DNA of 63,433 nt, from IMG/VR virus record IMGVR_UViG_3300019860_000021, positions 1 to 63,433 of that record, one strand, 5' to 3'. Shown here one piece after another: positions 128-63,433 of the stretch (position 1 is the first letter of the stretch; each line of letters starts with the position of its first letter). A model generated the notes under the pieces. It was not told the DNA's origin. It did not search any database and saw only the letters and a program-made list of their open reading frames with translations. The DNA is from a virus. The translations under genes were made by a program, and so were the position numbers.

Positions 128-172
128 TTTGCCGGGCCACCCTGGTGGTTGTGAGACCCGCGGGGTGTGGGG

Positions 173-535
173 TTATCCCCATGCCACGTGGGATTTGTGT
201 TTTTTGGCCCATTCGGCCAGGTCATGGAGTTCGCGGAGCCGCATGGCCAGGTGGCCGGGCTCGCGAGCTCCAGTGACCACCTGGGCCTCGACAGTGATGC
301 CGCCGAGGTCCAGTCGGCTGTCTGTGACGGCCGGGATGCCGTTGGCATCGTCGGTGGCGATACCGAGCAGCGCCAGGGCCAGGAGGACCCGGCCGAGGAA
401 GTCCTCGGCGGGTGCGACCCCGCACATGTCGTACGGGTCGTAGCCGAGGAGGTCGAGGAGTGCTGCGCCGTTGGCGTTGTGCACGTTGACCTCCGGGCCG
501 TCGTAGCGACCGGCGGGGTGGAAGGTGACGGACAT
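173..535 (-). CDS. hypothetical protein (120 aa)
   Basis: ORF 173..739 trimmed to the ATG at 535 (MSVTFHPAGRYDG...), which follows a GAAGGGAGG SD. No recognisable domain. Confidence 0.5.
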   Translation of the reverse strand: MSVTFHPAGRYDGPEVNVHNANGAALLDLLGYDPYDMCGVAPAEDFLGRVLLALALLGIATDDANGIPAVTDSRLDLGGITVEAQVVTGAREPGHLAMRLRELHDLAEWAKKHKSHVAWG

Positions 536-5377: not shown

Positions 5378-6258
5378 AGGGACGCTCCTTCGTACTGTTG
5401 CGTGTAGTAGGAGGGGAGAGAGACGACGACCGGGGAGTCGTCGGAGTAGCCGGGCCAGTTGCCGGTGCGTCGGCAGGTGGCGTAGCGTTGGCGGGCCTCT
5501 CGTGCCAGGTAGGAGCCGATGGTCAGGGCTTCGTGGTCGAGTTCGACCACCGTCACCAGGTACGGGGCCTGTTTTTCTTGGAAGACGAAGAGGAACGCGA
5601 CGTCCTCAGCCAGGCCGAGGGCGCGCACCCCGTCGATGTACCAGGCGGCCTGTAGGTGGTAGCCGTGGTCGACGATCACCCGCGGCAGCTTGTTCGGGTC
5701 TGCGGTTGCGCAGGTTTTGTAGTCGGCGAGGATGAGCCGCCCCTGCTGGGTGGGGTGGGGCAGGTGGTCGATCCGTGCCCGGCACACCACTCGCGTGTCG
5801 CTGTCCTGCCAGAACAGGGACTGCTCAGCCCTGCCCGCGGACTCGGTGAAGATCGGCCCCGCCACCGGGTGGCTCTTGAGGGCTTCGGCCATGGCCTGGA
5901 TCTGCTCGTAGTCGCCTCGTTTGAGCGGGATCGCGCCGCGTTCGCGGGCCTCTCGCGCTGCTTCGCGGGCGGCCTTGGTGCGCCAGTCCGGGTAGTCGAG
6001 CACGGCGAGTTCGGGGCCGACGCCGAGCACGAGTTTGTGCGCGGCGGTGCCGAAGTCGAAGTGCGGCCTCGGCGCTGGCGGGTGGGATTGTTCGTAGCGG
6101 AAGCGGGCCGGGCACTCCAGCAGCCGCCGGGCGCCGGTCGATGACAGGCTTCCCCCGGGGACGGGGTCGGCGTGGTAGATGTGCTCGGGCAGGTCGTACA
6201 GGCCGGGGCGGCGGATGACGGTCCGCTCCTCGGCTTGTTCTGGTGTAGTGGCGGTCAT
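5374..6258 (-). CDS. PD-(D/E)XK (Cas4/RecB-like) exonuclease
   Basis: ARIDHL...LILADYKTCA...YHLQAAWY motifs. ATG at 6258 overlaps the upstream stop (ATGA). Paired with recT. Confidence 0.75.
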   Translation of the reverse strand: MTATTPEQAEERTVIRRPGLYDLPEHIYHADPVPGGSLSSTGARRLLECPARFRYEQSHPPAPRPHFDFGTAAHKLVLGVGPELAVLDYPDWRTKAAREAAREARERGAIPLKRGDYEQIQAMAEALKSHPVAGPIFTESAGRAEQSLFWQDSDTRVVCRARIDHLPHPTQQGRLILADYKTCATADPNKLPRVIVDHGYHLQAAWYIDGVRALGLAEDVAFLFVFQEKQAPYLVTVVELDHEALTIGSYLAREARQRYATCRRTGNWPGYSDDSPVVVSLPSYYTQQYEGASL

Positions 6259-6518
6259 GAGGGTTCCTCTCTGTGTTCGGCAGCCCACGAGTCGACCACC
6301 AGGTCAAGGTGGGTGAGGGTGTGGGCGGCCTCCTCGGCCGCGCGTATGTCCGACGCGATCTGCGCGTACAGCCTGTTGGCGAACCTCATGAGGTAAGTTG
6401 CGGCCTCAAGCGCTTTACGAGCGTCCTGAGGATCGCTGGTTTGACCCCACAGTTCACGGGCCACGACGGTGGTTTTGAGGGCGCGGCGGGTGTTGCGCGC
6501 GGTGTCACGCCATCCCAC
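6255..6518 (-). CDS. hypothetical protein (87 aa)
   Basis: ORF in the operon with a coupled stop/start. No motif. Confidence 0.5.
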   Translation of the reverse strand: MGWRDTARNTRRALKTTVVARELWGQTSDPQDARKALEAATYLMRFANRLYAQIASDIRAAEEAAHTLTHLDLVVDSWAAEHREEPS

Positions 6519-6538
6519 GAGGCACCTCCCCGTTACGG

Positions 6539-6838
6539 TCAGTCATTGGTGTCCTCCTGTGCGGCGTGTCGACCGGTGGAGGGGACGAGGGTGTTGAGGA
6601 GGCGCTGGGTGCCTTCGGCGTCCAGCTCCACCAGCCGTTCGATGAGGGCCCTGTTGACCCGGTCGAGCTGGCGGTTTTCCTCGCGCAGCCTCCGGGCCTC
6701 TTTGCGGTAGAGCACGTAGCGGGCGATCAGCGGTGCCTCAACGGCGGCGACGAGGGCGAGGATGAGGAGGGCGCCGGCCATCATGGTGGCGGCGGCGACG
6801 GCGCCCACGCCGATCATCGCGATGCTGCCAACGCTCAC
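6539..6838 (-). CDS. membrane-anchored coiled-coil protein (99 aa)
   Basis: N-terminal hydrophobic stretch IAMIGVGAVAAATMMAGALLILALVAAV, followed by a charged helical tail. Confidence 0.5.
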   Translation of the reverse strand: MSVGSIAMIGVGAVAAATMMAGALLILALVAAVEAPLIARYVLYRKEARRLREENRQLDRVNRALIERLVELDAEGTQRLLNTLVPSTGRHAAQEDTND

Positions 6839-6990
6839 CTGTTCTCCTTGAAGGTGAAGCCGGGGCGAGGCCGCTGCCCGCGTTTGGGGCGGGTGTCGGC
6901 CCAGCGGGTGAGGGGATCGGGTCCGCGCGGGTTGCGTGGGAGGGGCGGCAGCTCGACGGGTTTCCGCTGCTCTTTACGGTTGGTCACCAC
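6835..6990 (-). CDS. small basic protein (51 aa), tentative
   Basis: GTG at 6990 overlaps the stop of 6984..7412. Its own stop is coupled to 6838. Confidence 0.3.
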   Translation of the reverse strand: MVTNRKEQRKPVELPPLPRNPRGPDPLTRWADTRPKRGQRPRPGFTFKENR

Positions 6991-7412
6991 CAGCCCTCCT
7001 CCTCCGCCTTGTATCCGATCCCCGCCAGCCATTCATGGGCGTGGATTGCCGGAATGCCCTTGCTGATGAGCGCGCGGATTCCGCACTTGTACGTCATCTC
7101 GACACCGTCGATCTCGTAGGTCCACCGGCGCGACGACAGACGCGTGATGGCGTGCAACTGTTCGTGGATGCGAGCTGCCTCCGCGGCCCGCTGGGTGGCT
7201 CGTGCCTCGGTGGGCTGGACACCCCTGACGCGGCAGGTGGACATGGTGGGGTCGTTCAGGTGCCACTCCCAGACGGTGTAGCCGTGCCAGCGCAGGGGTT
7301 CGACCGTGTAGGTGATCTCGGGGGCCACGCGGCCGGTGGGGTCGAGGGTTTCGTCTCGGGTGGGCAGGTCCACGATGGTCGTGGTGTGCTGTTCGTGGTG
7401 CACAATGGTCAT
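6984..7412 (-). CDS. hypothetical protein (142 aa)
   Basis: ORF 6984..7655 trimmed to the ATG at 7412 (MTIVHHEQ...), which follows a GGAGAGG SD. Confidence 0.55.
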   Translation of the reverse strand: MTIVHHEQHTTTIVDLPTRDETLDPTGRVAPEITYTVEPLRWHGYTVWEWHLNDPTMSTCRVRGVQPTEARATQRAAEAARIHEQLHAITRLSSRRWTYEIDGVEMTYKCGIRALISKGIPAIHAHEWLAGIGYKAEEEGWW

Positions 7413-7489
7413 TGAGATACCTCTCCTGGAGCTGCTAGAGGTGTCGTGGCCTCCGCTCGGGTGTCGGCCGGGCGGGGGCGTTTGTGTTT

Positions 7490-7735
7490 TCAGGCCGCTT
7501 CTGCGGCAGTGGCTGCGGCGCGGGTGGCGGCGACTTGGCGGCGCAGCGCTTCGAGCTGCGCCGGGTTCCAGGCGGCGCCGTTGAGGATTCGGTTCCGTCC
7601 GGCCTGGCGCCACAGCTCGGGGTCGATGCCTGCGGGGGCGGGCTGGTTGGCCCATGCGGCGAGCGCGTCGTAGGGGATGCCGGTTTCGTCGGCGAGCCGG
7701 TGAAGGTGGGCTTGGATCTGGGGGTCGGCGGTCAT
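7490..7735 (-). CDS. hypothetical protein (81 aa)
   Basis: ATG at 7735 overlaps the stop of the Cro-like gene (ATGA): MTADPQIQAHLHRLADETGIPYD... Confidence 0.5.
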   Translation of the reverse strand: MTADPQIQAHLHRLADETGIPYDALAAWANQPAPAGIDPELWRQAGRNRILNGAAWNPAQLEALRRQVAATRAAATAAEAA

Positions 7736-7959
7736 GCCTTCTCCCCGGGTGTGACGAGGTCGTCGACCGGGACCTCGAGGGCGTTGGCGATGCGGTGCAT
7801 TGTGACGCGGGACGGGGTGCGCTGCCCGTTTTCCACGCGGGACAGGTAGGCCCGTGATCTTTTGGTTCTTTGGGCGAGGTCTTCGAGGGTCCATCCGCGC
7901 TGTTCGCGGAGGGCGCGGATGGTGTCTCCGCTGACGGTGACAGTGCTCATGCCAGCCAT
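7732..7959 (-). CDS. XRE-family (Cro/CI-type) HTH regulator
   Basis: QRGWTLEDLAQRTKRSRAYLSRVENGQRTPS is a canonical HTH_3-type motif. First gene of the leftward arm. Confidence 0.85.
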   Translation of the reverse strand: MAGMSTVTVSGDTIRALREQRGWTLEDLAQRTKRSRAYLSRVENGQRTPSRVTMHRIANALEVPVDDLVTPGEKA

Positions 7960-8131
7960 GTTGCCTGCTGTTGCCTATCGATGTCAACATTGTGCCGGCA
8001 TGAAGTTGGCACGATCCCTAATTTTGATGATGCAAATGTGACGTGGAGCACTGTGGTGAGTGCCATGCTTGCCCCGGCAGGCGAAGGGTAGAGTGTTGCC
8101 TACCGTTGCCTCACCCCGAGACGAGATACCG
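7960..8131. promoter_or_regulatory. divergent switch region with four GTTGCCT heptamers
   Basis: tGTTGCCTgctGTTGCCT at 7960-7976 and tGTTGCCTaccGTTGCCT at 8095-8111, with 10-bp phasing in each pair. Lower GC than the flanks. TTGACA on the minus strand at about 7984-7989. Confidence 0.6.
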
Positions 8132-8644
8132 ATGCACGCGAGTGAGAGATGGCAGCGACTAGCAGAACTCCTAGCCGCACGCCGGGCGCGGCTGAACCCT
8201 GAATGGGCAGACCGCACCAGGTTCTGCTCCGACACCGATCTCAGCTACCGGTCGCTGTCCGACCTCGAAAACGGGCGGCGCGACAACTACAGCCCGGCCT
8301 GGTTAGCGAAGGTGGAACGCGCCTACCAGCTCAAACCGGGAGCGATCAGAAGGTACGTCGACAATGAGGTCGACACGCTGGAAACCTGTGGCAGCGGCGC
8401 CCCCTCAGAGCCGCTGGCCTCAATGCAGCGTCCTGCTGAGGACTCCCCCTCCCCTCAGCAGGACGATTGGGTTGAGGGAGTGTCGTGGTGGCCGTCCCGA
8501 CGTGACCCGGCTCTGCGCGTCTACCGGATGCGGTGGCTGGATGCCAATGGCCGTCGGCATGAGTACATCACTGAAGCTGACCGTGAAGTGTCACCGTCTG
8601 TGATCGTTGAGTATCTGGAGCGTAGGAAAAGCGAAGCGATGTAG
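8132..8644 (+). CDS. HTH regulator (candidate repressor), first gene of the rightward arm
   Basis: ORF 8060.. trimmed to the ATG at 8132. HTH-like DLSYRSLSDLENGRRDNYSPAWLAKVERAY. Divergent from the Cro-like gene. Confidence 0.6.
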   Translation: MHASERWQRLAELLAARRARLNPEWADRTRFCSDTDLSYRSLSDLENGRRDNYSPAWLAKVERAYQLKPGAIRRYVDNEVDTLETCGSGAPSEPLASMQRPAEDSPSPQQDDWVEGVSWWPSRRDPALRVYRMRWLDANGRRHEYITEADREVSPSVIVEYLERRKSEAM

Positions 8645-11412: not shown

Positions 11413-11576
11413 TCGGCCACGTCCCGTGTCTGGATTTGACCCACATTTGTTCGTAGCGTCCCCTAGCCCACCTCGTGTGGTGGCTCTGGCACCCGCCCCC
11501 CTTCCCCAGTCGCGAGTCGCGTCCTGGCGGGTGCCGGGGCGGCCACACGGCCGACCCCTCACACAGAAAGGAACAC

Positions 11577-11645
11577 ATGGAAGCTCAGCTCCGCGACTAC
11601 GAGCGGACCCTCAGTCTCATGCGCCACCTGCAGAAGAAGAAGTAG
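11577..11645 (+). CDS. 22-codon micro-ORF, speculative
   Basis: CACAGAAAGGAACAC-ATG gives MEAQLRDYERTLSLMRHLQKKK, followed by a 10-bp GC hairpin. Confidence 0.2.
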   Translation: MEAQLRDYERTLSLMRHLQKKK

Positions 11646-11732
11646 TAGCCGAGGGCGGCCCGCCCGCAGCGTCCCCAAGTCCGGGCGGGCCACGTCCCCA
11701 CCGTTACGCGAACTAGTGAGGAGGTTTCCAGC

Positions 11733-11966
11733 ATGCCACGTCTGCGTCGAAGGGACCTTCTCGCCATGCGTTTGTTCATACTCGCCGCCTACACCGTTGC
11801 CGCTGCGCTGGTCGCGTGGACGGGCCGGGACTCGGCCTGGTGGTGGGTGCTGCACTTCACCGGCGCGCTCGCCGGGCTCTGCGCGGTGTGGATTGCTCTC
11901 GACTCGGTTCCCGCAGACGAGGGCACCCCAGACCAGGCAGAGCAGTACTTCAGGGAGGACAGGTGA
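11733..11966 (+). CDS. small membrane protein (77 aa)
   Basis: GAGGAGG SD. Two hydrophobic segments (LFILAAYTVAAALVAW, VLHFTGALAGLCAVWIAL). Confidence 0.55.
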   Translation: MPRLRRRDLLAMRLFILAAYTVAAALVAWTGRDSAWWWVLHFTGALAGLCAVWIALDSVPADEGTPDQAEQYFREDR

Positions 11967-15494: not shown

Positions 15495-15720
15495 CGGGGG
15501 TTGTGTCACTCCCGTGACGCTGTCACACGAGTGTAGCGTTCTGACCTGCGGTAACGCCGTGACGGGGGTGTTGCTGTAGGGGGAGAAACAAGGGGTTTCT
15601 TCCAGGGGCCCTGCTCTTTGGGGTGGGGTGTCACACCGTCACATCGTCACAGAGAAGGAAAGGGTGGCCCGGGGCGACCAAACCGGCGGGCCACCACCCA
15701 CAGAAAGGGGCGACACCATC

Positions 15721-17190
15721 ATGGCATCCACGGTTCCTATGTCAGATGACGTGGCGTTGGAGGAGATCGCCGCGTTTGAGGGGCGGTTGGGTGTAGAGCC
15801 TGGCCGCAACCAGCTGATGTCTGAGTTCGGTTGGGGTGGGTCTCGGGCGTCTCGGCTGCTTCGGCTGTATCGGGAGCGGAAGCAGCGGTCTGGGGCGGAG
15901 GCGGTCCGGTTGCTGCCCGGGCTTGAGGCGGACCGGTCTGAGGTGGTGGTCCAGCAGTCTGGGTCGGAGGCGGTCCGGTCTGGTGCCGTGGACCGGTCCG
16001 GTGAGCAGTCTGGTGAGCAGTCGGGTGGACCGGTCCGGAAGGCTGACGGGGTGGACCGGTCTGTCTCGTCTGGTCTGGGGCGGTCCAGTGAGGCGGTCCA
16101 GTCTGGTGGACCGGTCCAGCAGTCCGGGTCGGAGGCGGTCCGGTCTGTCTCCTCGTCTGGTCCGGTGGTCCGGTCTGGTGGAGCAGTCCGGTCTGACGGG
16201 GCGGCTCGGGGTGAGCAGTCCACCGGTCCGGACCAGGATGCTGCTGTCGGTGTCGAGGCAGCCCAGGCTGGACTGGTCCGGGTAGAAGGGCTGGTCCCGT
16301 CGCTGGACCGGTGCGAGCCTGATCCCTGGGTTGAGGGGTGGACTGGTGGTCCGGCAGACCAGTCCGAGGTGGATGGCGTGGTGGACCGGTCCGGTGTGGT
16401 GGCGCAGGCCAGCATGAGCGGACCGAATACTGGTCCGGTGGACCGGGTCGAGGCTCGGACTGAGTCGGGTGGTCTGGTCCGGTCTACCGCCCGGACGGGT
16501 GTAGCGGACCGGTCCGGTCCGGGGTCCTCTGCTGGTGTGGTGGACCGGTCCGGTCCGGGTGGTGCGGCTGGCCTGGTGGACCGGTCCGGTGGGGTAGTCC
16601 GAGACGAGGTGGACCAGTCCGGTCCAGTGGAGGCCGCCAGTGAACCGGTCCGGTCTGGGTTGGGTGAAGCCGGTCCGGCAGTCCAGGCGCAGCGGACCGG
16701 GGATGCGGACCCGCGGTCCGGCGACGGACCGGACCGCAAGCCGTGGGGGCTCATCATCGCGATCCTTGCGATCAGCCTGTCTGCGTTCACCGCCGTGTGG
16801 GGCGGATGGGTCGGACTAGGCAGAATGGTTGGGTTCGGCAAGGTAAACCTGCTGCCTGGTTTCGTTGCCGATGGTGGGTGGGCCACGATTGACCTGGCGA
16901 TCACCCTGCCCATCGGGATTGAGGCGTATGCGGCGTCCGCGCTGTATGTGGCGGTGGCTGGTCTGGTGCGAGGCGGGAGCCGTTGGTTCGCGGGGAGCAG
17001 TGCTGGGCTCTCGCTGGCCTTGGGTGCGTTCGGTCAGGCTGCCTATCACGTGCTGGATGCGCAGGGCCGCACGGTTGCGCCGGAGTGGATCGTGGTGTTT
17101 GTCAGCGTGTTGCCGGTCGTGGTGCTGGGGATGGCTGGTGTGCTGCTGCACCTGGTGCTGGAGGAGCGTAAGCATCGGCGTCGCCGTTAG
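15721..17190 (+). CDS. repeat-rich protein with C-terminal DUF2637-like (SpdB-like) 4-TM domain
   Basis: ATG at 15721. About 300 aa of degenerate (V/A)(D/R)RSG repeats. C-terminal LIIAILAISLSAFTAVWGGWVGLGRM...LPVVVLGMAGVLLHLV resembles DUF2637 of actinomycete conjugative elements. Confidence 0.7.
   Translation: MASTVPMSDDVALEEIAAFEGRLGVEPGRNQLMSEFGWGGSRASRLLRLYRERKQRSGAEAVRLLPGLEADRSEVVVQQSGSEAVRSGAVDRSGEQSGEQSGGPVRKADGVDRSVSSGLGRSSEAVQSGGPVQQSGSEAVRSVSSSGPVVRSGGAVRSDGAARGEQSTGPDQDAAVGVEAAQAGLVRVEGLVPSLDRCEPDPWVEGWTGGPADQSEVDGVVDRSGVVAQASMSGPNTGPVDRVEARTESGGLVRSTARTGVADRSGPGSSAGVVDRSGPGGAAGLVDRSGGVVRDEVDQSGPVEAASEPVRSGLGEAGPAVQAQRTGDADPRSGDGPDRKPWGLIIAILAISLSAFTAVWGGWVGLGRMVGFGKVNLLPGFVADGGWATIDLAITLPIGIEAYAASALYVAVAGLVRGGSRWFAGSSAGLSLALGAFGQAAYHVLDAQGRTVAPEWIVVFVSVLPVVVLGMAGVLLHLVLEERKHRRRR
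15895..16740 (+). repeat. array of GGACCGGTCC palindromes and CGGTCCGG half-sites
   Basis: Perfect GGACCGGTCC at 15990, 16027, 16108, 16383, 16506, 16542 and 16578. GGTCCGGACC at 16225. Many partial copies. Confidence 0.8.
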
Positions 17191-28258: not shown

Positions 28259-28366
28259 TTGACGCTTCCGGTTTAGGAAGCTAGGCTCGGTGTCACGAGG
28301 TTAGGGGAACGGCCCCAGACACCCGCCCCGGGGAGCAGCCCCAGGGCCCAACCGGAAGGACCGGAA
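28259..28366 (+). promoter_or_regulatory. promoter + palindromic operator + conserved leader, copy A
   Basis: TTGACG N17 TAGGCT. The spacer is GCTTCCggtttaGGAAGC. The leader carries GGGGAACGGCCCCAG (28304) and GGGGAGCAGCCCCAG (28330), then CCGGaaggaCCGG around the SD. Confidence 0.6.
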
Positions 28367-29365
28367 ATGGCTTTCGTCACCGCCGAGCACGTATACACCC
28401 TCGCCGAAGCCGACTTCTCCGACCTGCCTGTCCTCGCCGTCGATGTCGACGGCGAGATCGAGGTCTTCCCCCAGTCCACCGCGCAGGCCCGCGGCGCCCG
28501 CATCCTCACCGACGCCGCCGCCCTCGACGAGTACACCAACGGTGAGGACCTGGACGACGTCCTCGCCGAACAGTTCGCCCAGGAACTCAACCAGGCGCAC
28601 GACCTGGTCGACGACACCGAGGACACCGACGCCGCAACAGGAGCGGACATGCGAATCATCAACCTGACGCCCCACGATGTGACGCTCGTCACCACGGGCG
28701 GTGACGAGGTCGTGGTCCCGCCGGAGGAAGCCCCGGCGCGGATCCCCGCCACGACCACCCCCGTAGGGGATGTCAACGGCATCCCCCTGGTCGTGGAGCA
28801 GCTGGGAGACGCCAACAGTGTTCTCCCGCCCCCTCAGCCGGGAGTGGTCTACGTGGTCGCGCGCCCCGTGGCGGAGCGCGCCAACCGGCCGGACCTGGTC
28901 GTCCCCACTAACGTGGAGCGGGTCAACGGCCGCCCGGTGCGCGCCCGGGCTCTCGCCCGGGTGGCGACAGAATCCCCCCGCACCGCGGCTGCTAACGTGA
29001 TTATCCGGGTCGCCGAAGCGGCGATCACCGAAGACCGGGACCACCAGGTCGCGCTAGAGCTGCTGGAGGTCGCCGCCGGGATTCGCCGTGGCAGCGGCAC
29101 CACGCTCCGCGATGCGACGTACGTACTCACCGCCATTGAACAGGCGCGGTTCATCTCCGCCCAGCTCCGGCGGGAAGCCCGGGCCGCGCTCGAGACCCTG
29201 AGGGGACTGGAAGCGGCATACGCGGACGACGTACAGAACAACCCCCCGTCCTGCCGTCCGTGCGGCGGAACCGGGGAACTGCCGGTGGACGATGTCACCC
29301 CGCCGGTCGCGTGCAGTGAGTGCGGGGGAACAGGCCAGGAGCAGGTGGTCGTCCCGACCGCCTAG
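28367..29365 (+). CDS. three-part protein: acidic N-region, domain paralogous to 18707 gene, C-terminal 2x CxxCGGTG
   Basis: 332-aa ORF. An internal ATG at 28649 follows AGGAG. CRPCGGTG and CSECGGTG are DnaJ-type zinc motifs. Confidence 0.7.
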   Translation: MAFVTAEHVYTLAEADFSDLPVLAVDVDGEIEVFPQSTAQARGARILTDAAALDEYTNGEDLDDVLAEQFAQELNQAHDLVDDTEDTDAATGADMRIINLTPHDVTLVTTGGDEVVVPPEEAPARIPATTTPVGDVNGIPLVVEQLGDANSVLPPPQPGVVYVVARPVAERANRPDLVVPTNVERVNGRPVRARALARVATESPRTAAANVIIRVAEAAITEDRDHQVALELLEVAAGIRRGSGTTLRDATYVLTAIEQARFISAQLRREARAALETLRGLEAAYADDVQNNPPSCRPCGGTGELPVDDVTPPVACSECGGTGQEQVVVPTA

Positions 29366-29429: not shown

Positions 29430-29469
29430 GAGCCCCCGACCGCGATGGTCGGGGGCTCCCCCCGTTTTT
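29430..29469 (+). terminator. rho-independent terminator
   Basis: 12-bp perfect stem gagcccccgacc / ggtcgggggctc followed by ccccccgTTTTT. Ends 9 nt before the next ATG. Confidence 0.75.
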
Positions 29470-29477
29470 GAGGACTC

Positions 29478-29972
29478 ATGGAACACGGCTCTGAGCCCAC
29501 GCAGTACACAGACCCGCCCGGCATGCCCGAGGACGAGCGCATGACCCCCAGCCAGAATTTCGCGTGGTCCGCCGAGGCGGGGCTAACTGCCACGGAACAT
29601 GTCTGTACCGGAAAGGTACGGCTGTCTAGCGTGGGGGGTATGGCCGCAGATGACCCCCAGCAGATGCGTGAGCGCCTCGACCGCATCCGGTGCTCGTTCT
29701 ACCAGTGGCGGATCAGCTACGAACTCCACCGCCCGGAGGGGGGACGGTGGGTGGCGTGGCGAATCGACCCGCTGGAGGAGTGGGAGGCGGAGGCTGGCCT
29801 GACGTGTGTGGTCTCCGCATGGGACCACGATACGTTCCTGGCGAGGCTGGGCGCGGAGCAGAGGAGGCAGGATGAGCTGAGGGTCAGGCGGCGGCAGGAA
29901 GAGGAGGAGGGGAAGTCGCGCGGCCCCCTGTCCCCTATGCGGCAGCGCGGCGAGGGGTCCCGGGGTGGCTGA
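29478..29972 (+). CDS. hypothetical protein (164 aa)
   Basis: GAGGA SD. ORF with an Arg/Glu-rich C-terminus. No motif recognised. Confidence 0.55.
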   Translation: MEHGSEPTQYTDPPGMPEDERMTPSQNFAWSAEAGLTATEHVCTGKVRLSSVGGMAADDPQQMRERLDRIRCSFYQWRISYELHRPEGGRWVAWRIDPLEEWEAEAGLTCVVSAWDHDTFLARLGAEQRRQDELRVRRRQEEEEGKSRGPLSPMRQRGEGSRGG

Positions 29973-30034
29973 GGGGCGCCCCGGGGCTGTTTTCCCCGTC
30001 ACCGTGGTGGTGGCGGGGAATTTTTGTTGCACAC

Positions 30035-30136
30035 TTGTCGCTTCCGACTTAGGAAGCTATGGTGGTGTTAGTCGGGGAACAGCCCCAGACACCCGCCCCG
30101 GGGAACAGCCCCAGGGCCCGACCGGAAGGACCGGCT
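30035..30136 (+). promoter_or_regulatory. promoter + palindromic operator + conserved leader, copy B
   Basis: TTGTCG N17 TATGGT. The spacer is GCTTCCgacttaGGAAGC. GGGGAACAGCCCCAG occurs at 30074 and 30100. CCGGaaggaCCGG surrounds the SD. Near-identical to 28259-28366. Confidence 0.6.
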
Positions 30137-30439
30137 ATGCGCACGACTGCTGGGGACTACACCGTCTCGGTCGCGTTGACCGACGACGTCGCCGACAACG
30201 GTCGCAGCACCGTTGAAGTGCTGCGCCGCGAGCAGATCGGGGAGGTCGACGGCGAGACCTTCTACGCCCTCGGTGGCAAGATCACCGGATGGACGATCCC
30301 CGTGCCCACGGACGCCGACGACGTCATCGACCAGGCGCTGACCGCCGCCGAAGCCGTGCTCGCCGAGCACGGCTGGAAGACCGCCGGCCCCTGGGAGATC
30401 GCAGACAGCAACGCCCACGCCCCTGTCACCAGGGGCTGA
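30137..30439 (+). CDS. small acidic protein (100 aa), anti-defence candidate
   Basis: ORF 30059.. trimmed to the ATG at 30137 after GGAAGGA: MRTTAGDYTVSVALTDDVADNGRS... No known motif. Confidence 0.6.
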   Translation: MRTTAGDYTVSVALTDDVADNGRSTVEVLRREQIGEVDGETFYALGGKITGWTIPVPTDADDVIDQALTAAEAVLAEHGWKTAGPWEIADSNAHAPVTRG

Positions 30440-30449
30440 CGAATGGCTC

Positions 30450-30488
30450 GGGGAGGTCGGCGCCGCGGCTGGCCTCCCCCCTTTTTTT
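30450..30488 (+). terminator. rho-independent terminator / attenuator
   Basis: ggggagg N16 cctcccc followed by cT7. Ends 9 nt before the GAAGGAG SD of the next gene. Confidence 0.75.
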
Positions 30489-30509
30489 CCCTTTGTGAAG
30501 GAGAAAACA

Positions 30510-31355
30510 ATGCTGACAGCAGCAGAGTTCAAGACGCTCCGGGAGCACCTCGGCATCCCCGGGGAATGGCTCGCACGCCGATTCGGCGTCTCCGACAGAT
30601 CGGTGCGGCACTGGGACAGCGGGAAATACCCGGTTCCCGAACGCATCAGCCGCTGGCTGCGCTGGCTGGCCGAGGAAACCGAGGCCACGGTGGCCTGGAT
30701 CGCAGAACGCCTCGAGAACAGCCCTGAGAGGCTGCTGGTCACCTACCGAAACGATGAAGAACTCGACGCCGGCGCTGCGGACGACCCCTACCGGGGTCTG
30801 TATCCGGACGATGACTTGCCGTCCGCTTGGCACCGCAGGATGGCCGCCCGTGTTGCTGAGCGCGTGCCGGGGTTGCGCCTGGTCTACCCCGGCCAGACGG
30901 CAGCGGACATTCCCGCTGCGGTCACCAGCCTTCTGGACGTGACCGCAGACTGCGACGACCGCTCCGATCCCGAGGCGTGGATCGAGGCGTGGTCGTCGCA
31001 GTCTGCCAGCCACGGGTTCGAGACGGAGCGGGCCGGTGAGGCGTACAACGGCGCCCCGATTCTTGAGGACGCAGAGGGGGAGCTCTACGTCCTGTCGTGG
31101 TGGGAGGGGCGCGTGTACGCGTCTCGGATCACCACGTGGGTGCGGGAGGCCGAGGAGGAGGGGCTGGAGGCCGTGGAGCTCCGCGACAACGGCCGGGAGG
31201 TGTGGGCGTATGCCTACGCGTCCAACAGTGCCGGGTCTATGAGCCTGGTGGACGCTCGCGTTGTGGTCGGGTCCGAGGCCACGCCCGGCGAACGCGAGGA
31301 ATGGGTGCGCGATTACGTGAGAGGCCTGGAAGCGGGCGGGTACGAGCGGGGTTGA
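30510..31355 (+). CDS. Aca2/DUF1870-like HTH regulator with extra C-terminal domain
   Basis: MLTAAEFKTLREHLGIPGEWLARRFGVSDRSVRHWDSGKYPVPERI...LLVTYRNDEEL...AWHRRMAARVA parallels the recalled Aca2 pattern (ELQAIRKLL..VSARSWQYWESGRSAVPDDV..LRFYNKLDEY..GWRLSQSVAA). Confidence 0.55.
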   Translation: MLTAAEFKTLREHLGIPGEWLARRFGVSDRSVRHWDSGKYPVPERISRWLRWLAEETEATVAWIAERLENSPERLLVTYRNDEELDAGAADDPYRGLYPDDDLPSAWHRRMAARVAERVPGLRLVYPGQTAADIPAAVTSLLDVTADCDDRSDPEAWIEAWSSQSASHGFETERAGEAYNGAPILEDAEGELYVLSWWEGRVYASRITTWVREAEEEGLEAVELRDNGREVWAYAYASNSAGSMSLVDARVVVGSEATPGEREEWVRDYVRGLEAGGYERG

Positions 31356-31375: not shown

Positions 31376-31408
31376 GGGGCCCCCACAATGCCGTGGGGGC
31401 CCTTTTTT
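31376..31408. terminator. bidirectional terminator at the convergence of the two arms
   Basis: ggggcccccac N6 gtgggggccc followed by T6, with an A-rich 5' flank. Confidence 0.8.
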
Positions 31409-62211: not shown

Positions 62212-63392
62212 GCGGTTCCCTCCTGCATGGCGCGTTCGAGTTGTTCGGCTTCGGCGAGTGCGTCGGCGAACATCGCCTGGGTGTTTTGTTGCCGGTAGGT
62301 GAGTGGTCGGGCGTCGGGGAAGGCCACGACGTTGCTGCCGTTGGGGGTGTTCATGACCTCGTTGACGACGCTGGGCAGGGTTGAGGGGTGGAGCCCCTTG
62401 GTCATCCAGTGGGCGAGGCCGCGTCGGATGTCGTCGGGGTGGATGCCGTCGTTGAGGAGGGTCTTGATTTCTTTAGCGACGTGTCCGATGACGCGGCTGG
62501 GGGGTCGTTTGGGGCAGCGGTCGAGCCATTCGCCGATGAGGGTTTGGGTGGTGGGGGGTGGGGTGTGCGGCGCTGTTGCGCCCGAAGACGTAGTCTTCGG
62601 TTCTCTTTCCTGTACCAGAAGACTCCCGGAACCTTTTACACCTACACCTACACCGGACCCTTCCGGGAAGGGTTTCGGGAACCCTTCCGGGAACCCTTCC
62701 GGGAACCCTTCCCGCGTGGTCTGTTGGGGTTCGTTGACCTGCTGTTTTGTGGTTTTGGGGTGCAAGGGTTGGCTGTCACCTCCTCTGTGGTTGGGGTTGG
62801 GGTCGGAAATGGGCTGGTGGAAAGGGTTGGGAGACCCTTCCTGGAAGGGTTCCTGGAAGGGTTCCGGGAACCCTTCGGGAAGGGTTTCGGGAAGGGTTCC
62901 AGCAACCTTTTCGATGAGAGCGCGGGTGCGCTCAGCGCGCTCGGTCGGCAGTTCGTCGATGGGGAGCCGAGACAACTCGTAGCGGAGTACAGCGCGCAGG
63001 GTGGGGGACACGGTGGACTGGACGTGGCCGAGCGCGGACTTGAGTACGTTCGGCTGTTTCCACAGTCCGTCGTGGCGGATGAAAGTGCGCACGAGGACTT
63101 CTTCGGTGTCCTCGTCTACGACCACGTACCAGTACGCGTTGAGGCGTTCCAGGGCGGCGGTGACCCGGGGGCCGGTCATGCCGTGGGCGAAGCGTGCCCA
63201 GCGGCGTTCTTGGAGGGGGAGGACACCCGCGGTGTTGATGTTGGGTTGGGAGAGCAGGACGAAGTACAGCCATTGAGCGTCGACGTCCAGTTCGGTTTTG
63301 AACTTCTCGTTTTGCCAGATGGAGCTTCGTAGTTGGGCGTAGTTTCGGGCCACTGGTTCTCCCTTGCTGATGGTCATGGTTTGCTTTTGCAA
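62208..63392 (-). CDS. initiator-like winged-helix protein with internal iterons
   Basis: N-terminal YAQLRSSIWQNEKFKTELDVDAQWLYFVLLSQPNINTAGVLPLQERRWARF (organizer/Rep-like). Central EGFPEGFPEGFP linker is encoded by the iterons. Start at 63392 (TTG) or 63377 (ATG), inside the terminal overlap. Confidence 0.6.
   Translation of the reverse strand: MQKQTMTISKGEPVARNYAQLRSSIWQNEKFKTELDVDAQWLYFVLLSQPNINTAGVLPLQERRWARFAHGMTGPRVTAALERLNAYWYVVVDEDTEEVLVRTFIRHDGLWKQPNVLKSALGHVQSTVSPTLRAVLRYELSRLPIDELPTERAERTRALIEKVAGTLPETLPEGFPEPFQEPFQEGSPNPFHQPISDPNPNHRGGDSQPLHPKTTKQQVNEPQQTTREGFPEGFPEGFPKPFPEGSGVGVGVKGSGSLLVQEREPKTTSSGATAPHTPPPTTQTLIGEWLDRCPKRPPSRVIGHVAKEIKTLLNDGIHPDDIRRGLAHWMTKGLHPSTLPSVVNEVMNTPNGSNVVAFPDARPLTYRQQNTQAMFADALAEAEQLERAMQEGTA
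62653..62900. repeat. two clusters of 12-bp-phased GGAA-N3-TTCC iterons
   Basis: Cluster A 62653-62712, including cgggaacccttc x3 in tandem (62676-62711). Cluster B 62831-62900 (tggaagggttcc x2, gggaacccttc, gggaagggtttc, gggaagggttcc). Nearby are ccgaagac gta gtcttcgg (62582-62600) and tacacc x3 (62637-62654). Confidence 0.8.
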
Positions 63393-63433
63393 ATGGGGGT
63401 GGCTGTCCCGTGGTGGGGTGGCCGTTTTTGTTA
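63307..63433. repeat. Terminal overlap, exact copy of 1..127
   Basis: See feature 1..127. Confidence 0.9.

Follow-up and report, generated by a model that had tools for sequence, protein, structure and literature searches.

Two operator-leader operons and a putative Aca2-family autorepressor in the genome of a Thermobifida phage

The stretch of DNA analysed here, called the window throughout, is the whole of IMG/VR virus record IMGVR_UViG_3300019860_000021 (63,433 nucleotides, 66% GC). It is a complete phage genome of ~63.3 kb, and because positions 1-127 are exactly identical to positions 63307-63433, it is circularly closed or terminally redundant. The Thermobifida fusca phage P1312 is 91% identical to the window across the region described below. 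An early and replication arm on the plus strand (~10.8-31.4 kb) converges with a lysis and structural arm on the minus strand, and the distal end of the plus-strand arm is formed by two operons of the same layout. In unit 1, the promoter P1 and leader 1 are followed by gene A, a terminator, gene B, and a second terminator, which is mirrored in unit 2 by P2, leader 2, gene C, a terminator, gene D, and a second terminator (Table 1). From the promoter to the end of the leader, the units span 28259-28366 and 30035-30136, respectively. The locus is read here, with somewhat better than even confidence, as a pair of early accessory operons of a Thermobifida siphophage under the control of an Aca2-family autorepressor module, with gene D as the regulator and effector cargo in front of it. 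An earlier note, made from the sequence without database searches, had picked out the promoter-operator-leader of gene C and its sister copy upstream of genes A and B, the 100-residue acidic product of gene C, and a terminator or attenuator between C and D. All of these features are present.

Table 1. Features of the two-operon locus, in coordinates of the window or in residues of the protein (aa, amino acids; HP, hairpin; SD, Shine-Dalgarno; MFE, minimum free energy; pI, isoelectric point; RBS, ribosome-binding site; HTH, helix-turn-helix)
Feature	Position	Strand	Description
Promoter P1	28259-28287	+	-35 TTGACG (28259-64), 17-bp spacer, -10 TAGGCT (28282-87)
Operator in P1	28264-28281	+	perfect inverted repeat GCTTCC-GGTTTA-GGAAGC, filling the spacer
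Leader 1	28299-28366	+	HP1 28299-28320, HP2 28325-28347, SD hairpin 28352-28364 (MFE fold)
Gene A	28367-29365	+	332 aa, pI 4.29, phrog_21731
Gene A N-module	aa 1-95		pI 4.05, net charge -22
Gene A, rest			middle domain, then C-terminal CxxCxGxG zinc-ribbon pair
Intrinsic terminator 3' of gene A	29430-29469	+	
Gene B	29478-29972	+	164 aa
Intrinsic terminator 3' of gene B	29992-30026	+	
Promoter P2	30035-30063	+	-35 TTGTCG (30035-40), 17-bp spacer, -10 TATGGT (30058-63)
Operator in P2	30040-30057	+	perfect inverted repeat GCTTCC-GACTTA-GGAAGC, filling the spacer
Leader 2	30071-30136	+	HP1 30071-30090, HP2 30095-30117, SD hairpin 30122-30134 (MFE fold)
Gene C	30137-30439	+	100 aa, pI 4.28, net charge -10
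Intrinsic terminator/attenuator, C-D gap	30450-30488	+	12-bp stem, T7 run
Gene D	30510-31355	+	281 aa, RBS GAAGGAG, pI 4.59
Gene D N-domain	residues 1-~127		Aca2/YdiL-like HTH and dimerisation domain
Gene D recognition helix α3	D29-S37		includes R30 and H34
Gene D C-terminal domain	residues ~130-281		acidic α/β, about 150 aa
Bidirectional terminator	31376-31408	both	meeting point of the + early arm and the - lysis/structural arm

In both promoters, a perfect inverted repeat fills the spacer between the hexamers and thereby overlaps the core promoter, as it does in loci that are controlled by Aca2. The repeat GCTTCC-N6-GGAAGC is found in two exact copies in 63.4 kb, against ~0.004 expected for its 12 specified bases, and its placement inside the spacer recurs in 40+ related cassettes. 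The GC-rich hairpin between cargo and regulator also recurs at the equivalent position of distant cassettes.

The leaders downstream of the two promoters are 92% identical over 66 nt (28304-28369 versus 30074-30139), with a 22-nt core that occurs exactly twice in the window, where 0.02 copies are expected. In the MFE folds, HP1 takes the form GUC/GGUU-GGGG-pentaloop-CCCC-A-GAC, HP2 is a near-copy of it, and the SD hairpin of both leaders (CCGG-AAGGA-CCGG) sequesters the Shine-Dalgarno sequence. Structured hairpins that extend through the 5' untranslated region (UTR) to the RBS, a trait of acr-aca2 operons, are therefore present. The duplication of HP1 as HP2 is seen in the Thermobifida phages; Streptomyces cassettes contain HP1 and the SD hairpin only. 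The SD hairpin covaries: double changes were observed in all four of its pairs, a score that none of 500 shuffles reached, and it is found in 39 of the 42 cassettes with at least eight stem variants. In HP1, the loops vary across cassettes and the stems are invariant. A search of the leaders against Rfam (E ≤ 10) returned no match.

Gene D very probably encodes a regulator of the Aca2 family. An exhaustive HMMER search with its residues 1-~127 recovered 683 related clusters, which are mostly stand-alone proteins of 115-150 aa. As a single sequence, D has Aca2 (7ezy, E 9e-4) as its top match in the PDB. Over its positions 6-98, a profile built from 72 homologues matches the Aca2 structures 8w35, 7vjo, 7b5j, and 7ezy at E values between 5e-14 and 1e-12, and the next unrelated HTH protein follows at 5e-6. 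PF08965 is matched individually by 52 of the 72 homologues (E ≤ 0.01), and a cassette-linked relative of D, the L061 protein, scores 27.3 bits and so lies above the Pfam cut-off of 23.8. In the AlphaFold2 model, the N-domain reaches a predicted local distance difference test (pLDDT) score of 90-98 and the C-terminal domain ~75-85. Foldseek superimposes the model on full-length Aca2 chains with template-modelling scores (TMt) of 0.77-0.79 over 124-132 columns. The two-domain fold is shared as well with YdiL (1S4K, TMt 0.73) and SO3848 (2OX6, TMt 0.61, the best match), which had been the sole proteins in which both Aca2 domains were recognised earlier (PMC8434428); unlike D, they are chromosomal rather than phage-borne and have no such leader upstream. 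The arginine R30 on the recognition helix, which is needed for autoregulation by Aca2 of phage ZF40 (PMC8434428), is kept in D, where DRSVRHW aligns to ARSWQYW of Aca2, and this position is nearly invariant across the family. Since homology and fold agree, the N-domain is assigned to the Aca2 family despite the failure of D itself at the Pfam cut-off. The reading in the earlier note that this gene joins an Aca2-like (DUF1870) part to an extra domain is thus borne out on both counts, the profile of 72 homologues supplying the similarity to be looked for. The fused C-terminal domain has no fold match in Foldseek and no similarity to any anti-CRISPR (Acr) domain, and outside Thermobifida phages a single distant homologue, P0031, was found.

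The operator is linked to Aca2-like genes in other phages. In the otherwise unrelated Streptomyces phage Gilgamesh (129 kb), the sequence TTGTG-GCTTCC-AAATTT-GGAAGC-TAGCGT lies upstream of, in this order, a hairpin, an SD hairpin, the small acidic gp86, another hairpin, and the Aca2-like gp87. In about 30 (pro)phage contigs of Streptomyces, Aca2-like genes likewise have this operator, the leader hairpin, and the SD hairpin in front of them. When IMG/VR and GTDB genomes were scanned with the operator only, all seven testable high-GC matches had a leader and, 1-2.4 kb downstream, a same-strand Aca2-like open reading frame (ORF). None of the about 36 matches outside high-GC actinobacterial (pro)phage contigs had an Aca2-like ORF; these low-GC or non-actinobacterial matches, which are also without a leader, were dismissed as chance. 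A scan with the leader hairpin, in which HP1 was written as GGTCAGGGG-N3-8-CCCCAGAC, recovered about 29 further cassettes, with an Aca2-like gene in 18 of the ~20 that had enough downstream DNA. The search through other actinophages that the earlier note had proposed thus finds Aca2-like genes with the same operator and leader, and the cargo upstream of them belongs to no known family.

Among 25 Aca2-like proteins that were tabulated, operator half-site and recognition helix change together. Operators of the TTCC..GGAA class go with R(T/S)VRHW in 21 of 21 proteins, a helix type that includes D. GCACCC..GGGYGC operators pair with RTVRSW in two cassettes, ACCTCC..GGAGGT pairs with RTLRAW, and ACCCCAC..GTGGGGT with DTYRRW. 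One of the RTVRSW proteins closely resembles a TTCC-class protein in its N-terminal part, as judged by eye, yet differs at residue 34, which sits on the predicted helix α3 of D. This co-variation of half-site and residue 34 is the strongest available evidence that D-type proteins would read the inverted repeat, and by comparison between phages it supports the earlier idea that D acts at GCTTCC-N6-GGAAGC. Repression of both P1 and P2 by D at this repeat is therefore considered likely.

Neither genes A, B, and C nor six other cargo families have a functional match in Pfam, PHROGs, or NCBIfam. The homologue of gene A in P1312 has been detected by mass spectrometry (PMC4569894, Table 1). The acidic N-module of gene A stands alone in L002 and L015, is fused to C in L003, is fused to C as a divergent copy in L012 and L015, and is absent from L008 and from phage P318. 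For its middle domain (aa 95-185, window 28652-28920), phages of Paenibacillus and Bacillus as well as archaeal viruses encode homologues of ~33-38% identity, all annotated as hypothetical.

The family of gene C comprises at least 179 clusters, which are mostly "hypothetical" proteins of Streptomyces. The confident AlphaFold2 model of gene C (pLDDT 88, predicted template-modelling score 0.78) matches no solved fold in the PDB by Foldseek (best E 0.5) and only its own relatives in BFVD. The family profile, compared with PDB sequences, gives a best E of 0.018 with no stretch significant alone. Even between phages with D proteins ~90-95% identical to that of the window, the cargo genes are reshuffled. 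In the Streptomyces cassettes, five or more small acidic families that are unrelated to each other take the place between leader and aca2-like gene. Fusions of cargo and Aca2-like domains exist in P0032 and L061. In P0032, a linker connects a gene C domain to an Aca2-like domain; P0030 is a tandem duplication of the Aca2-like domain; and P0031 joins an N-terminus that by eye is Phd/YefM-like to a domain resembling the C-terminal domain of D and to a domain in common with the L061 cargo.

The Streptomyces cassettes L009, L016, L052, L056, L060, L061, L065, L074, L080, L089, and L090 lie on IMG/VR contigs of ~82-98 kb, and NCBI contigs with members of the gene C family are of similar size, which points to a single family of large temperate elements or phage-plasmids. 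In L003, a close relative, a PCMT-like methyltransferase (5894-6973, plus strand) is encoded directly upstream of the cassette, and ~2.7 kb downstream of it, beside lysis genes, lies a gene for a 71-aa protein of the Acb2/Tad1 hairpin family (11576-11791, minus strand). This family is a family of anti-CBASS/Thoeris sponges.

In gene B, the first ~25 aa (TDPPGMPEDERMTP) share homology with an N-terminal extension of Streptomyces Aca2-like proteins, and the body is unrelated to them. The start of the gene (window 29478-29552; L004 2956-3000) has 85% nucleotide identity to Gilgamesh, and in L002, L012, and L017 the gene is 5'-truncated to 110-115 aa. The possibility that gene B is a degenerate Aca2 paralogue was rejected, as only the first ~25 aa match and the profile comparison gave a probability of 0.5%. 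Judging from these sequence remnants, an aca2-like gene of its own probably closed cassette 1 at an earlier time, and the start of gene B looks like the scar of a recombination. As an occupant of the "aca slot" with an Aca2-like N-terminal peptide, gene B is a weaker anti-defence candidate than A and C. In P1312 (L001), an IS605 orfB/TnpB-type gene (7149-8567) sits between the homologues of A and B. This gene is host-derived and is reported to share 99% identity with a copy in T. fusca (PMC4569894). The window lacks it, which indicates that insertions are tolerated in this region.

The closest experimentally described system is Aca2, which represses transcription at a promoter-overlapping inverted repeat and binds two hairpins of the 5' UTR, blocking translation (PMC13551039). 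The dual architecture of promoter repeat and leader to which the earlier note had drawn attention matches this published design, including a second operon without aca (PMC13551039). Like the acrIF8-aca2 operon of Pectobacterium phage ZF40 (PMC6765145, PMC8434428, PMC13551039), the locus has the Aca2 fold and R30 in its regulator, an inverted repeat in the core promoter, 5' UTR hairpins up to the RBS, and a small gene upstream of the regulator. It differs from it in that D is only ~23-24% identical to ZF40 Aca2, scores below the Pfam cut-off, and carries the extra acidic domain of ~150 aa; in that a strong intrinsic terminator splits cargo from regulator; in that the cargo is unrelated to AcrIF8 and a candidate effector only; and in that the host belongs to the actinobacteria and has a type I-E system. 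According to the summary in PMC13551039, actino-motifs and proteo-motifs have been described for Aca2 operons (Birkholz 2024), and a regulatory reach of Aca proteins to nearby operons without aca has been predicted. As far as that summary characterises them, actino-motif operons share with the locus the actinobacterial (pro)phage setting, the promoter DNA motif, and the adjacent downstream RNA motif of the 5' UTR, and multi-operon regulation by Aca proteins involves an extra motif pair in front of an operon without aca, as in P1 and P2 here. The operator and leader of the window are probably this actino-motif, an identity that is presumed. The joining of an HTH autorepressor domain to a second domain recalls the Acr-Aca fusions AcrIIA1 and AcrIF24, as these are outlined in PMC13551039 and PMC9410906; unlike in those proteins, the second domain of D resembles neither an Acr domain nor a known fold. 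The fusion domain of the regulator, the terminators between cargo and regulator, and the duplicated leader hairpin are three minor variations on the known design.

A course of events can be proposed from this layout. The reaction to infection would start with the host RNA polymerase carrying its housekeeping sigma factor, which would fire P1 and P2 at entry, since their hexamers are near-consensus with 17-bp spacing. The transcripts would bear a structured 5' UTR of two similar hairpins and a third that holds the Shine-Dalgarno sequence, and the first genes, which encode the acidic cargo A and C, would be made at once. The terminators after A and C would let only read-through transcripts reach B and D, so that D should accumulate late. 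A dimer of D with the Aca2 fold is then predicted to bind the repeats in both promoter spacers and shut both operons, and it may additionally bind the leader hairpins and block translation, by analogy with Aca2.

Several findings weigh against parts of this interpretation. Scored alone against Pfam Aca2_YdiL (PF08965, DUF1870), D reaches 14.4 bits (E 0.044), below the gathering cut-off of 23.8. The strong terminator between C and D makes their co-transcription an assumption. The leader folds have z-scores of -0.3 to -1.8, which are unremarkable in 66% GC sequence, and thermodynamic stability was set aside as evidence for the leaders because these values are not distinctive. No covariation of HP1 was seen in the cassette alignment, and its stem is unchanged among cassettes with differing operators and recognition helices. 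This invariance argues against a reading of HP1 by the same specificity residues and implies that it is read either by conserved residues of the regulator or by an invariant host partner. HP1 and HP2 could accordingly be cis-acting RNA elements for a conserved host component, serving as an mRNA stabiliser, a translation enhancer, or a put-like antiterminator that allows read-through to B and D, while D acts only at the DNA operator. The constancy of the stem GGUC-A-GGGG / CCCC-A-GACC across four operator/helix specificities is what an invariant partner would lead one to expect; the stretch between cargo and regulator repeatedly contains a terminator or a GC-rich hairpin, and operator half-site and RNA stems have no consistent sequence resemblance. 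Against this, Aca2 has been found experimentally to bind two 5' UTR hairpins and an actinobacterial Aca2-linked RNA motif has been published (PMC13551039), and the invariance of HP1 is partly imposed by the search pattern, though cassettes found with the operator only have HP1 too. A purely host-directed role of the hairpins is regarded as rather unlikely; that D also acts on the leader RNA, as its likeness to Aca2 may suggest, is given slightly less than even weight.

The nature of the cargo is the other point at which readings part. No likeness to a known Acr or anti-defence family or fold was found for the cargo in the family libraries or, for gene C, among folds. Known acr genes adjoin no more than about 3% of Aca2-like genes (PMC9410906), which makes likeness to Aca2 weak evidence for anti-defence cargo. 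Relatives of gene C occur in L093 with a different operator and a non-Aca2 regulator, and in L094 without such a regulator, adjoining a serine recombinase. An obligate partnership of gene C with Aca2-like proteins was rejected on these grounds, and the same occurrences indicate that gene C is cargo rather than a cofactor of D, a role that they fit. Under identical regulation, A, B, and C might instead be accessory early genes of another sort, whose products in excess would be toxic and which would therefore be kept tightly off, for example for host takeover, superinfection exclusion, or as moron-type genes expressed from the prophage. Apart from the missing homology and the 97% of Aca2-like genes that are not beside known acr genes (PMC9410906), such an account can draw on the Streptomyces cassettes, which lie beside integrases or at prophage ends as is typical of morons, and on gene X, whose N-terminus is HTH_17-like, so that some cargo looks DNA-binding. 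It is opposed by the combination of small, acidic, shuffling cargo with an Aca-type repressor and self-fusions to the regulator, a signature that has been successful in finding Acrs (PMC13551039), and by the counter-defence-like genes in the region of L003 (the methyltransferase and the Acb2/Tad1-like gene). This account is held to be somewhat doubtful. A toxin-antitoxin-like pair in the style of HigBA or MqsRA, in which C is the small upstream protein and D the downstream XRE-type autorepressor, is highly improbable. Gene order and autoregulatory layout resemble higBA, D weakly matches MqsA and HigA2 in sequence, and P0031 combines its D-like C-terminal domain with the Phd/YefM-like N-terminus noted by eye. 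However, C is acidic and matches no toxin family or fold, it is replaced by unrelated small acidic proteins and occurs without an Aca2-like partner, and the Aca2 matches of D beat those to HigA and MqsA by at least eight orders of magnitude.

The reading preferred here is that of an Aca2-family autorepressor with effector cargo. Its regulatory part is well supported and of a design already known; the anti-defence role rests on guilt by association and is plausible, because the cargo is acidic, small, driven by early promoters, and fast-shuffling, is under Aca-type control, and is found in fusions with the regulator. The N-module of A, gene C, and possibly the C-terminal domain of D are most likely anti-defence or host-interference effectors, and an anti-defence function in the strict sense is put forward tentatively, at a little under even weight. 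It is a more speculative and in itself unlikely proposal that the gene C family, the N-module of A, and possibly the C-terminal domain of D are new actinobacterial anti-CRISPR or anti-defence families, one of which perhaps inhibits the type I-E Cascade/Cas3 of T. fusca, with a terminator-attenuated Aca2 fusion as both repressor and effector.

Some further observations concern the neighbourhood of these elements. In L093 (5900-6000), the promoter spacer ahead of the gene C relative contains a perfect 24-bp palindrome, ACTATGCCTCAC|GTGAGGCATAGT, which is followed by an HP1-like hairpin with different stems (GGCC-GA-GGG-AGCAG-CCC-GAA-GGCC); the downstream gene encodes a non-Aca2 protein of 80 aa. 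Elsewhere in the window, 12-bp iterons (GGGAACCCTTCC / GGAAGGGTTCC) in both orientations form two clusters (62644-62726 and 62833-62914) that are ~110 bp apart. These clusters, which are close to the end of the genome, resemble an origin or a binding array for packaging proteins. Several families of GGTGGACCGGTCCGGT-type direct repeats lie at 15880-16600, in and around the ORF 15628-17190.

The ~40 cassettes with their four operator/helix classes would amount to a specificity code for Aca2-type repressors, in which residue 34 is set against the half-site, and the invariance of HP1 amid changing operators bears on how, or whether, proteins of this type read RNA targets. Also contained in the collection of cassettes are several small acidic protein families of Streptomyces (pro)phages that share this control and are as yet unexplored. 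Should the cargo be anti-defence, it would provide some of the first candidate inhibitors known from Thermobifida fusca phages, and because the type I-E Cascade/Cas3 of T. fusca is an established biochemical model (bioRxiv 10.1101/208058), these candidates would be directly testable in vitro.

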